A stretch of 64,000 nucleotides of DNA from Schmidtea nova (lineage: Eukaryota): contig CM097882.1 in the NCBI GenBank assembly GCA_044892505.1, positions 182,900,001 to 182,964,000 on the forward strand, in the 5' to 3' direction. Below are positions 32,301 through 38,300 of this stretch, piece after piece. Position numbers and translations under genes: made by a program. The notes beneath the pieces are model-generated. The model worked only from the letters and a program-made list of their open reading frames with translations, had not been told where the DNA came from and searched no databases. The stretch's first letter is position 1. Each line of letters starts with the position of its first letter.

Positions 32301-35300
32301 CAACATTATCGATATGCGATGATAAGAGAGAAAAGAACCTACAAGAAGTAGCAAAGGAAGCGAATACGTGTTTCGAGAAGAAGATAAAACCACGGTTAGA
32401 ATATGAGAAAGGACGAATCTTAAGAGGAAATCTAAATTCCATGATAGAACAAATCATCCCACAAATCAAAAAACATAGAAAGGAGTTAATGAGAAGCGAA
32501 TACGAAAAGTTGAAACGATGTATCGAGTGCATACGTGACACAAGTCACACGAGATGGTCACAGATCTCATACGGAAAAGTAATTGCAAAAATGGGAAAAG
32601 CAATGTTCAGACAAGGGAAAATAACAGATCTGAAAATTGCAGTAGAGTTACCTAATGAGGATACCAAAGAAATTGAAGTGGTAGCAGACTGTACCATAAA
32701 AGAATTAGTAAATGTCATCAACGAGACACTATTACAAAGAGAACCAGAAGAAGAATGGGAAGATGACATAATTATGAAATATAACGAACATGTATTATGG
32801 GATCACGATGAAAGACGGCTATATAAAATTGGTATATGGGATAATCACCAAACCATCCACGTTATCAGAATGGACGATACACCAAGAGAAACTGCTAAAG
32901 ATGAGAAAAGAGAACGAGAACGACAAAAAGAAGTTGTGCACAAATTACAACAAATAGTAGACATCTATCGAAATTGGCGGATTTGGCCAGAATGGGAAAA
33001 TGTATTAGAAGAACTTAATCTCAACAGACGATTACGAACACCTGTAGAAAAGCAATGGAACGAACGAGGAAAATGTTGGGAACCAAAAGCAGGCGAATAC
33101 GAAGAAGAATATGAAATAGGCATAGAAGACGATCACAAACCGGAAACCGGAAGGGTTTGTATGGTAACAAGAAAAGCCATGCCAGCAGATTTAGACGGAC
33201 CAGAAACGGCAACCATGTGGTTGGAAAGAGAGAAACAAAAAACGGAAGAATTTGTCGAAATATTAAAAACAAATGCGCACGGCAAGAGAAAATTAGTAAA
33301 AGGTCTCGCAGATTTTTTCGTAGTTAACGGAGAAGACATAACATGCTTGCGTAAAGTAGCAAAAGCAATCGCCGAATACAAAAGAGTTAACGAGTGGTGC
33401 CCAGAACAATTGGATCACGTAATTAAAAAATGGAGAAACCAAGAATTCTCGCAGGAATCGCCACAGAAAGTACACCTAAGAATAGTATATCCGAACCAAG
33501 AAAAGGAAGAGTTTTGGGTAGGGATAGCGGAGAAAGTTCGAGACATTAAAAAGAAATTGAGATATGAACCACCATTCCATTTACAACACCAAGGACGATC
33601 ATTAGATAACAGCTTGGAAATTGGAATAACGCCAGCGCAATTAGATATCGCAAATACATTGACAGTGGCAGCAATAGCAGGCCAACCATTGAAATTGAAA
33701 GAGGAAAAGAAACCAAAAGGAAGTATGAGTACGCCGAGCCCAATGAAATCGGTAATGACTCCAGGAACAAGCTCAGAACAAGCTAGAACAACACCAAGAG
33801 AGACAAGAGAAAGAACGTCACCAGAACCATACGATGTAGACGAAATTTTAACAGATAGTGATGATATGTTGGAGGAACTAATAGAGCTAACAAAAGAAAA
33901 AGATGATAATATTTTCGAAAGAATTCAAGAATTACCAACAGCAATACAGGTAACCAACCCCGAAGATGAAGTTGAACAAGAAATAATCATCGAAGAAGTA
34001 AATGAAATAGCAGAAGAGGAAGCAAGGAGGGCAAATGTAGAAAATGTACAATTCACACAAGAAATGGAAAGATGGTTAGAAGAAAGAGCCAATGAACCAA
34101 GAGACGTCACAGAAGAAACTGGACGAGAAACAAGATTGGTAGAAACGGGCACGACAATGGATAAACGACCTAGAGGTAGACCCAAGATGGATCCAGCAAA
34201 TGTAGTTATAAAATCAAGAGAGGAAAAAAGACGGGATCAATGGGATTTGTGTCTAAAGAAACTAAATAAAATAGCCGAAACGAAAGAAAAAGAAACAACA
34301 CAAACATACCAAGGCGAAGAATGGATATCAAAGATGTTAATGGAAATACTAGCAATAATCGATCCGGAATTAAAGAAATGGTGGAGAATAAACGAAATAA
34401 GCGAAAGGGCGAAATCACTACATAGCGCCATCGCACCAATCCTACCAGAACTAATAAAAGAGAAGACAAGGTCAAACCACCTAGATTGGCAAGGAACCAC
34501 GATGTTGATAAAGAAGTTAACGGAAGGAGCAGAGACGGATAACAAATATTTAATAGCTATGGCATACACAATTTACAATCTGTTGACACTGAGTAGAGGT
34601 CGACTGAAACCCACAGCACTCGAAAGACATATAAAGAATACAGCCAAAATTATAGAGAAAGAAATAGAACCGTACATCATCAGTAAAGGAGGATGGGAAA
34701 TATTCACAAAAACAAACCAAAAGAAAAACCAAGCCAAAAATATGAAAAAGAAATTCGAAGAGATATTGGGAGAATTGGAAAAGGAAAAGTCGGGAACACT
34801 AAACGGGAAATCGTCACTAAACTTGAGTTCCATTATTATGATGATGTTAATATGGATGATTAGTACTGACGGCGCAACAGCATTTGAAGTATTCGATTGC
34901 GATCAAATGGCATTAGGTGAAAAATACTCATTACGAGGGACAGAACAATGTAAAGACGCAACCCCAACGGAGCTAAAAACATTAAAAAAGAGACAATTAT
35001 ACCACGTATATCAGGAAGCTGAACTGATAAGAACAATGGTCAGAGAATGCAAAGTTTATAAAACCAGATTTGCTTTTTATTGTGGACACCGCCATTATTC
35101 AGCAATCGTGATGCCAGGAACGGAAAGAGAATCGGTAATGCTGCAAGGAGAAGACTGTGAAAAATTATTCAAACATGGAGAAGTAGAGACTAGAGATAAA
35201 GTAAAGATAAGAGGAAAAACGGGAGTGATATTACAACAAACATATTATGTAGCAGGAGCTATTACGGGAGGAGAAGGGTACTGCCAAGGAGCAACATATC

Positions 35301-38300
35301 CAATATTCGGAGTAGCAGCAACAAACATAGTGGTAATAGATACGTATACAGTGGAACTAAAAACGTACGAGGCATTCTTCGATCCAACGACGGGAGAAAT
35401 GAAAACTCTACCTATATGCAAAATTGAGTCAAACACTTGTCAAACCGGTATGTCAACCCTAACCTACCAGATACGAGGAAAGGAATGTCAACTACAACTA
35501 CTAAAGGAAGCAGAATTCGATGAGATACAAGGGAAAACCTTCCAAGAGGAAGAAGAAGACGAGGCAGCAAGAGGAAAAATACTTCAAGACACAGTACGGG
35601 GAGAGAAAAAGATTGAAACCCGAACACAAGAAAAACAAATTAAAATGAGAAATACACCAACGGTACTAATTACCTCAGATGCAGATATCGGAATGAGATT
35701 TGTAAAAGGTAAAACAGCCTTGAAATGCGGAGTAGCTATGTTGGAAACCAACTACCCCGGTATTTTTGTATCAAAACAAGAAGTACCTAGTGCGAAACGC
35801 AAAGTGCACACGAACGATGTTAAATTACACCTTTACATGAACAATAAAATGGATTTTCTATTCCATAGAGGACAAGCGTCACTACAAAAAGTGTATTACG
35901 ACTTAATAAATAACGATTGTATATTAAATAGGGAAATATTAAAGACAAAACTAGCAGTAGCAATCACAAACCCGGATAGTGCAATGCCACTGTTACCATT
36001 AAGAGAAGGTCATTTTGGAAGGGTAGTCGGAGAGGTCATGTACGTATACATATGTAAAAAGACGAACGCAAAGGTGGCAACAATGACAAAACTACAACCA
36101 GGTCAGTGTACTAACGAACTAGAAATCGAATATAAAGGGAAAGTAAGATATGTGCAACCAGTGACAAGAATCATAAATCCAGTAAGCTTCGAACCAAACC
36201 CTTTCAATTGCAGCAACGCATATGGACCACTATACCAAAAACCAGACGAGAATTGGGTTATGTTTCCGTCAAGAACAGAGGTACCAGCACCAAGGGAATT
36301 TGAATTGATGCAACTATCAAAAGGACGAAAATTTAAAGACGTGGATGTAAGCAATATGGGATTCTATAGCGCAAAAGACCTAGAAGCAGCGAGACAAAAC
36401 ATACTATTTCCAGCAAGAAGGGAAGCGGTGCTATCCAGTATTGTAACAATAACAGGAGGAACAAATTACCAAGGTGGACCAAACTACGAATTATTATTGT
36501 CACCAGCCCACTTTAAGAAGGCAACGGAAAACATGATGAAAGCGATGTGGGGAAGATTTTTAATATTTAGACAAATGATGGCAGGAATACTTGGTGTTAT
36601 ACTAATTATACAAATAATACGGGTAATAATAACGCAAATGTTAGCCTGTTTTGACATCTATAAAAGAGAAAAGAAAGTAAATTGGAAATTGGTGGTAGGA
36701 TTCTTACCATTTTTGGCTAAAACAATGGTATTACACGGTCATTCAAAAGATATTCACCGAATCAAGAGATTCCTAAAAATACTGGCAAAAATGAAAGGAA
36801 CCGATGAAGAGGTGGGACGAAAATTTAAAAAGATAATGAATAACGAGCAAGCAAGACAACAACTAAAGAAAGAGAGAAAAGGACTATGGGAAAGAATGAA
36901 AGGGTACAGAACCCAAGACGATTCCAGTGACGACGATGATGATGATAACGAAGGAGGCCAAGTATATAAAAATCAAGTACCACAGTATGTCGAAAAGAAT
37001 CCAGCCGAAATGTGGAAGTGTTACGCACCCCCACCAACCATGTACCAAGAACCAACACCAGGGATGAGACAAAATACAATGCAAATGATGCCGATGACAA
37101 ACATATATCCTATGATACCAGAAGACTATAGAACGAGACGGTGCAGAAGCGTAGATCCGCAAGGAGACTCACATACAATTGCAGTAATGTCATCAAACAC
37201 CGGTCCAGTATTAACTACAACAATCGAAATTAACGGAAGGGAAATTGAAGCGATGATTGATACAGGAGCAAATATCTCAGCAATAGATATAAAATGGATA
37301 CCACAAGAACAAAGACGGGATATTGAGAGAACCAACGTTCACGTAATAGCATGCAGTAAAGAAGTAGTAGAAGTTGCCGGAAGATGGTGGGTAAAGATAA
37401 AACATCAAAACACAGAAATCGAAACGTACGTAGCAGTAATACCAGCACTGAGCGTACCATGCATTATAGGCACGGATCTGATGCCAGCATTATTCAAAGA
37501 AATAGTTATTGATCTGGGAACAATGAGACTAAAGGATAGGACAGGACAGATATGCGCAATAGAAGCAAAAGTAACAAGTTCGAAACAAATAATCGTACCA
37601 GCACGGAGAGAGAAAATATGTTTCGTAAAAATAGACCCTACAATAGAAGGTGACATGATTTTTGAACCCAGTAAAAGATTTGAAAAGAGAAAGTCGTTGC
37701 CAATGGCAAGGGGATTAGTGAGTGCGAATGACAACGGAGAAATCCCAATAAACGTAGTAAATTTCGATGAAGAGGATAAAATAATTTATGAAAATGAAAG
37801 ATTAGGTAAGCTAACTCCAATGATGGATATCGGAATACCAATAAGAGAAGGAGAAAAAGATGAAGAACCCACCTGGAACATTGATAGCCAACTATTGAAT
37901 GAGGATCAAAAGAAACAGCTAGCAAGATTACTGATAGAATATAAAGACATATTCGCAGCATCCGATTTAGATCTAGGGACATGCGACGTCACACTACATA
38001 CGATTCCACTAACAGACGAAACGCCGATTGCGTTAAGACCATACAAGTTAGCTGAAGCGCAAAAATCAGTAGCAGAAGCAGAGGTACAGAAAATGCTAGA
38101 CGCAGAAGTAATTGAACCAAGCTGCTCACCGTGGCAATTCCCAGTCGTAATGGTGAAAAAGAAAGACGGAACACAACGATTTTGTATTGACTATCGGAGA
38201 TTAAATGCAGTAACAAAACGGGATACATACCCATTACCGGACATCAACGAGATGTTATTGACATTACAAGGAGCGGCATATTTTACATCATTGGATTTGA

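Follow-up and report, generated by a model that had tools for sequence, protein, structure and literature searches.

A gB-like fusogen under purifying selection within the Gag-protease frame, and a further predicted membrane cassette, in a Burro-type giant Gypsy element of Schmidtea nova

What does a retroelement do with a viral glycoprotein that lies inside its own polyprotein? This question is raised by a 64,000-nucleotide stretch of the Schmidtea nova genome (GenBank assembly GCA_044892505.1, contig CM097882.1, positions 182,900,001 to 182,964,000, forward strand), here called the window, in which an initial annotation made from the letters alone had placed a chuvirus-type fusion glycoprotein within a Gag-Pol reading frame. 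We find that window 23436-52123 is a single Ty3/Gypsy long terminal repeat (LTR) element of 28,688 bp. It is a giant planarian Gypsy of the Burro type, placed there by comparison with the published description. Its glycoprotein (G) lies in frame between Gag and protease, has a modelled fold of the class III, glycoprotein B (gB) type, and is fixed across the family, where purifying selection on it is strong. We consider it rather probable that the chain is threaded twice through the endoplasmic reticulum (ER) and cut, probably giving an enveloped particle with the enzymes inside. Coordinates are those of the window, and the features of the element lie on the forward strand unless stated otherwise.

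The two LTRs (5' LTR, 3367 bp, 23436-26802; 3' LTR, 48758-52123) start with TGTTG, end with CAACA and are flanked on both sides by the 4-bp target duplication CATG. They are 99.4% alike, differing by 18 mismatches and one gap, which indicates a young insertion. Despite these near-identical LTRs, identity between the window copy and the others is about 97% across the open reading frame (ORF). The best match of the reverse transcriptase (RT)-RNase H region in the PDB was Ty3 RT (4ol8, E 1.5e-86), far above retroviral RTs, and the Pfam order of the Pol domains is protease (PR), RT, RNase H (RH), integrase (IN); the element therefore belongs to Ty3/Gypsy (Metaviridae). Membership in BEL/Pao was rejected, as the RT_RNaseH and Integrase_H2C2 matches are of Gypsy type, no Pao peptidase family was among the matches and Ty3 RT was the best hit. 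A classical insect errantivirus with an F-type env as a separate 3' ORF was rejected as well, the env here being internal, in frame and gB-like.

A stop-free frame extends from 29315 to 39379 (3354 aa from stop to stop, first in-frame ATG at 29837) and encodes Gag, accessory sequence, G, protease, RT and RNase H. Gag (29837-30700; Retrotrans_gag, E 1.4e-4) combines a capsid-like region with three CCHC knuckles (30548-30700). It is followed by a long accessory spacer (30701-34380) with no significant Pfam match. Approximately 1,380 aa of accessory sequence thus separate the last knuckle from the signal of G, so that G does not stand directly behind Gag; in this respect the initial annotation is corrected. 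G itself consists of an internal signal sequence (signal 1, 34817-34882; a hydrophobic core followed by small residues, predicted cleavage before 34883), an ectodomain with 14 Cys (34883-36556) and a transmembrane (TM) segment, TM1 (36575-36631, hydropathy 2.57). Behind TM1, a short Pro-broken hydrophobic helix (36680-36736), likely membrane-interfacial, is conserved and occurs in free-standing G relatives too. The frame continues with an aspartic protease (37205-37504; RVP, E 3.7e-8; DTG near 37259) and a Ty3/Gypsy-type RT with RNase H (38015-39244; RVT_1 and RT_RNaseH; YIDD at 38474). Domain and motif matches hence confirm that signal, Cys-patterned ectodomain, TM segment and tail share one ORF with Gag and PR/RT.

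In the window copy, the frame is interrupted behind RNase H by a stop at 39377-39379, and it changes near 41,340 and 43,780. Integrase (39380-40600; Integrase_H2C2, E 1e-22; rve, E 3e-11) lies in the same frame behind the stop, followed by ankyrin repeats (40900-42150; Ank_2, E 5e-9 and 7e-4), in which the first frame change falls. An open frame of 5140 aa around G was found in 23 of 75 scored G matches (3715 candidates), and at least 5000 aa were open in 18 of 36 copies. The continuous chain Gag-G-PR-RT-RH-IN is a property of the family and not of the window copy: the enzymes that were proposed to be tethered to the G tail follow it in frame across the family, while here the integrase is cut off. 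A dUTPase-like domain, which belongs to the Burro type, was not matched by Pfam in the region scanned.

Against Pfam PF24664 (Monjiviricetes_fusion), the G region scored 228 bits (cut-off 27, E 2e-67), and none of 14 control genomes was positive for this family. A sequence search of the PDB with G gave no match, so that the link to gB is visible by profile and fold only. The ectodomain was modelled as a monomer with AlphaFold2 (138 aligned rows, mean pLDDT 89.8). All PDB matches listed by Foldseek for this model were herpes gB (best E 7e-14), and the VIA comparison with herpes gB gave Z 9.7 and rmsd 6.8 over 401 aligned residues. In BFVD, the best match was a chu-like G (E 1e-37, TM 0.6-0.7), followed by qin- and xinmo-like proteins. 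Since the model matches both herpes gB and chu-like G, we assign the predicted structure to class III. The profile and structure comparisons suggested in the initial annotation thus uncovered the likeness to viral fusogens. A Monjiviricetes, gB-fold glycoprotein is what these matches describe, and "chuvirus-type" is too narrow because the embedded G forms a branch of its own and the fold matches mix chu-, qin- and xinmo-like proteins.

Signal, cleavage-site pattern, the 14 Cys and the TM segment are conserved in relatives down to approximately 27-40% identity. A [YFW]DC-type start of the ectodomain, behind a hydrophobic core and small residues, was present in 21 of 21 rows, and the 14 Cys were kept in every aligned row that has a letter there. 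In a quick tree of 128 rows, built from the C-terminal half of the ectodomain (rows covering fewer than 230 residues were excluded), the 18 rows that have Gag or protease motifs in the same chain all fell into one branch of 25 rows (SH-aLRT 95). The remaining seven rows of that branch lack such motifs and, except for P0015, look partial; 97 other rows, most of them free-standing relatives, lie apart from it. The embedded branch fits a single old capture. Four free-standing relatives that were examined have the same signal, the same YDC start and the same segment after the TM helix, so the capture likely took in the entire viral gene, signal included.

The same genome contains further G-bearing families. 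Their single ORFs are 3401 and 3393 aa long (elements of approximately 16-17 kb) and, in another family, 5649 aa. As regards the position of G in sister families, which the initial annotation had singled out for checking, G of the shorter ones is 35-37% identical to that of the window and is again in frame ahead of the protease. G and a protease domain also occur together in all seven of the longer database relatives.

These data bear on the idea that G arrived recently as a passenger, being a piece of a chuvirus gene that landed in frame by chance in one copy. Fragments of chuvirus G are indeed common endogenous elements in arthropods (PMC7642597, covered in part). We surveyed copies chosen without reference to G, namely the 39 other best matches to the 5' non-coding DNA (40 scored of 596 candidates). 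G was in place in 38 of the 39, complete in 37 and in one more beyond a nested insertion; in the remaining copy, which is uninformative, N and simple repeats were reached before G. Neither of the findings that the initial annotation had named as refuting its proposal was borne out, be it a lack of similarity to viral fusogens or a G with termini of its own that other copies lack. Independently of the survey, the presence of G in sister families at the identities given above, the grouping of all 18 polyprotein-embedded rows in one branch, the purifying selection described below and a GC content at third codon positions (0.317) that matches Gag (0.323) and spacer (0.318) all argue against a passenger. 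The copy survey, together with the counts of silent and replacement variants, refutes a recent insertion of this kind, and we regard its probability as vanishingly small.

Selection was assessed by counting silent and replacement changes among variants common to at least two copies, using 36 of the 39 copies (L039, L047 and L056 break off early and were omitted), the window and one ruler copy; the copies are related and the transition weight is assumed, which limits how exactly the resulting omega values can be read. G had 108 silent and 5 replacement variants (omega ~0.02), RT 50 and 4 (0.03), integrase 54 and 9 (0.06) and the spacer 173 and 82 (~0.18, a moderate constraint). G and RT were alike in constraint (Fisher p 0.47), whereas G and spacer differed (p 3e-10). 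Variants seen in single copies were far less constrained (omega 0.33 in G, with 5 stops), as expected from decay after insertion, and no stop in G was common to two copies. By these counts, constraint among replicating copies is as strong on G as on RT, an argument that the envelope remains necessary. Loss of G only was not seen. One of 18 extra loci (L108, G000:C2:264726906-264730406) has an internal deletion from approximately window 32147 to 41861, by which G and all Pol enzymes are lost.

The initial annotation had overlooked a second predicted membrane cassette after the integrase. It consists of an internal signal-like sequence (signal 2, 42825-42896, hydropathy 1.51) with a counterpart at the same place in sister families, four Cys-containing repeats of approximately 82 aa (42897-44299, delimited by repeat alignment; the frame change near 43,780 lies here), and TM2 (44549-44605, hydropathy 2.65) with a short tail up to the end of the frame at 44791. 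An Atlas search gave the lead toward FN3-like repeats. Repeat 4, folded as a single repeat, reached pLDDT 88. FN3 domains dominated its VIA list (best Z 8.5, rmsd 2.7, 76 aligned) and stood on top in Foldseek with a middling E of 0.025, and the Pfam FN3 match of the repeats had an E of 0.11 only. From these middling scores, the modelled repeat is likely to have an FN3 fold. A homologue search with the second ectodomain found none among 3800 candidates of 302-963 aa.

The layout is met again elsewhere. Sister families B, C and D end in signal, ectodomain and TM segment after Pol, and the family with the 5649-aa ORF (L077-L078) has the signal-FN3-TM module twice. Among six database polyproteins that reach integrase, signal 2 and TM2 were found in three (P0004, P0005 and P0010), and P0018 has the signal. 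The second ectodomain is among the fastest-evolving parts of the ORF, with 62 silent and 72 replacement shared variants (omega ~0.45, under the same limits as above). This is approximately twenty times faster than G (0.45 versus 0.02), as a host-facing protein might evolve. The literature searched contained no report of a second or FN3 cassette; figures and most supplements lay outside that scope, so one may be in print.

Two side observations concern the same part of the chain. Between three and five aspartic-protease-like motifs occur in P0004, P0005, P0009 and P0011; one of them follows the integrase in P0004, P0005 and P0009, and it stands just ahead of the second signal in P0004 and P0005, a placement that would suit a separate protease for each membrane cassette. 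The analysis also covered four contig runs from one study, a kind of data that does not bear on transcripts or splicing. Window 30808 and 42736 are joined in contigs from two runs; the joint lacks 11,927 bases, and its ends do not resemble splice sites. Going by the coordinates, it would connect Gag to the second cassette without a frame change and drop G and Pol. Its short side is backed by only 21 letters, and it was absent from 48 assembly loci (18 candidate and 30 further, of 97 candidates).

How might such a chain be used? Gag and the accessory domains would be made in the cytosol. The native signal of G, captured with the gene, would then open translocation, and signal peptidase would cut before 34883, leaving the Gag-side piece briefly anchored in the membrane. 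TM1 would stop transfer, so that PR-RT-RH-IN-ankyrin forms a cytosolic loop. Translocation would resume at signal 2 to carry the FN3-like repeats across, and TM2 would anchor them as a second type I membrane protein. During budding, the element's protease would free Gag and the enzymes. G would fuse the particle with a new cell, and the FN3 protein might serve in attachment or as an immune decoy. This topology fits the conservation of signal and TM segment across relatives. Processing at internal signals is established for alphavirus and flavivirus polyproteins.

Directly in front of signal 1 (window 34385-34882) lies a BCL2-like region (34385-34745), a weak call. Its Pfam Bcl-2 match has an E of 0.11 only, neither the PDB nor Atlas gave a match, and similar regions lie upstream of G in P0008, P0012 and P0022. 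By analogy with tail-anchored Bcl-2 proteins, the cleaved signal 1 would serve this piece as a C-terminal membrane anchor. The label itself follows the Burro paper (PMC6431247, covered in part).

Several points weigh against double threading and an enveloped particle. The topology is read from hydropathy and an insertion scale, and flanking charges leave the orientation unfixed, as the presumed lumenal side of TM1 also has 4 K/R. Signal 2 is weaker than signal 1 in the window family. The helix after TM1 and an extra hydrophobic stretch between FN3-like repeats 1 and 2 could each change the topology. The ectodomain of G contains a single N-glycosylation sequon and lacks a furin-like site. A second cassette was not seen in P0009 and P0021, two chains that extend to the integrase but are possibly truncated. 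An FN3 profile run against eight other C-terminal regions matched none convincingly, the best score (P0018) being equalled by 6 of 200 shuffles; therefore the layout is common, while common descent is not shown. Judged from the variant counts, selection means that G matters for copying, and it is not proof of membrane fusion. Finally, a single frame should yield Gag, G and Pol in equal amounts, an odd ratio for assembling a capsid.

This stoichiometry problem would disappear if the element and the fold were the same and the full-length chain were a minor product. Splicing, internal initiation or recoding would then supply Gag in excess, along with G or Pol made separately, in the manner of ordinary errantiviruses, in which a spliced env mRNA is standard. 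The signal of G, with its several Met residues, would also permit an internal start. Set against this are the frame that is open over at least 5000 aa in half of the 36 copies and throughout the ORFs of the sister families, and the lack of any G stop common to copies. Between the nucleocapsid region and G lie only two in-register slippery-like heptamers, each at a long distance from where Gag ends. We consider separate expression unlikely.

The membrane proteins could also act inside the host, without free infectious particles, either as an ER assembly scaffold or in cell-to-cell fusion or passage into stem or germ cells. All products would indeed be membrane-tethered in cis, and selection in cis is compatible with either use. 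Known class III proteins are virion fusogens, and a complete gB-like ectodomain with 14 invariant Cys and an omega of ~0.02 exceeds what a scaffold needs. In favour of this reading, BURRO1 RNA has been seen in differentiated tissues upon PIWI loss (PMC8532177, covered in part), so that entry into stem cells would need some route. On this evidence, a role inside the host without free particles seems distinctly improbable to us.

Going one step beyond the threaded, particle-forming chain that we favour, Burro-type elements might be infectious flatworm viruses whose two-glycoprotein envelope comes from one chain, with a frozen gB-like fusogen before Pol, a fast FN3 attachment or decoy protein after it and the enzymes clamped between two anchors. 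We put this forward tentatively, as possible and less than probable. A flavivirus-like design with the enzymes between two anchors was not described for any retroelement in the literature examined. Such particles, if they exist, would tell whether Burro counts as a virus and by what route it gets into planarian stem cells, and they would make it a retroelement built like an RNA-virus polyprotein.

The rest of the element carries further features. A putative primer-binding site (26809-26826) begins with TGG 6 nt past the LTR; a single search for the primer tRNA by exact pattern gave no match. An accessory ORF of 153 aa with a C-terminal RING finger (27158-27619; PF13920, E 9e-12) precedes the polyprotein, and the 5' untranslated region contains tandem repeats with units of 30, 41 and 55 nt (28063-28821, no strand assigned; repeat families D5, D7 and D8). 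Behind the polyprotein lie a near-complete TRAF-like ORF with zinc fingers, a coiled coil and MATH (45338-46759; MATH_2, E 3e-21; zf-TRAF, E 8e-5) and two more accessory ORFs of 257 and 197 aa, the second with a TM segment, that had no significant Pfam match (46817-48552). Interference of the RING and TRAF-like products with host death or immune signalling is possible. Within the LTRs, a 163-aa ORF lies at 24833-25324 and 50130-50645; a relative on the reverse strand at 12886-13350 (33% identity, E 3e-24) is probably in the LTR of another family. Outside the element, two 98%-identical inverted copies with broken ORFs (16855-19218 and 52751-55122), which we take to resemble hAT-type transposase, flank it at a distance. 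At window 6100-12000, AT-rich units of 575 bp form an array in which both orientations occur, and 55829-60222 holds a second, ordinary, broken Gypsy-like element with gag, protease, RT and integrase frames and no env in the frames listed.

Among known systems, Anakin, a mosquito BEL/Pao element with a chuvirus G, is likewise an LTR retroelement with a G of the same broad family. The window element differs from it in being a Gypsy, with an RT nearest Ty3 and an embedded G on its own branch (PMC7642597). Closer are the HSV/gB-type GAG-ENV-POL errantiviruses reported in 2026 from Nematoda, Bryozoa and Platyhelminthes, including six S. mediterranea elements. They share with the window element a Gypsy Pol, a gB-type env, the order gag-env-pol and multiple copies, and two S. 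mediterranea env rows share words with the window G by eye. The main text of that paper, in the portions covered here, does not contain "polyprotein", "in-frame" or "single ORF" and leaves one-chain topology untreated, nor do these portions mention a second cassette (PMC13524379).

Nearest to the window element are Burro1/GYPSM1 and the Burro-like dugesiid elements, giant Gypsy LTR elements with one ORF of approximately 5,000 aa, a Gag with three CCHC, an env between a BCL2-like region and the protease, and RING, TRAF/MATH and ankyrin cargo (PMC6431247, to which the comparisons in this paragraph refer as far as it was covered). The planarian Burro (2019) was the first in-frame case, with mononegavirus glycoprotein matches of its env; an env between gag and pol is thus already in print, contrary to the novelty implied by the initial annotation. 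That paper linked the Burro env to gypsy Env and to baculovirus and paramyxovirus fusion proteins, whereas the window G is modelled as gB-like class III. TRAF is a separate downstream ORF in the window element. BIR is reported for Burro1 and not stated for every Burro-like element; as the window ORFs scanned gave no BIR match, we file the element as Burro-type and not as Burro1. A Burro-like ORF of another planarian has 5,140 aa, an agreement that is no evidence of identity because the number of knuckles and the position of TRAF differ. A second membrane cassette, present in the window element, is not mentioned in the Burro text covered. Burro is merely mentioned in a further paper (PMC11410931, covered in part). 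The headline feature of this locus is hence a rediscovery. As new leads, the analysis offers evidence of selection on G and a second predicted membrane cassette.

For the use of such a chain, the nearest models are outside the retroelements. In alphavirus and flavivirus polyproteins, a single chain passes through the ER by means of internal signals and stop-transfer segments, and the capsid-side piece is anchored by the signal of the next protein. These are RNA viruses with class II fusogens, and their likeness to the window element is an analogy of mechanism only.

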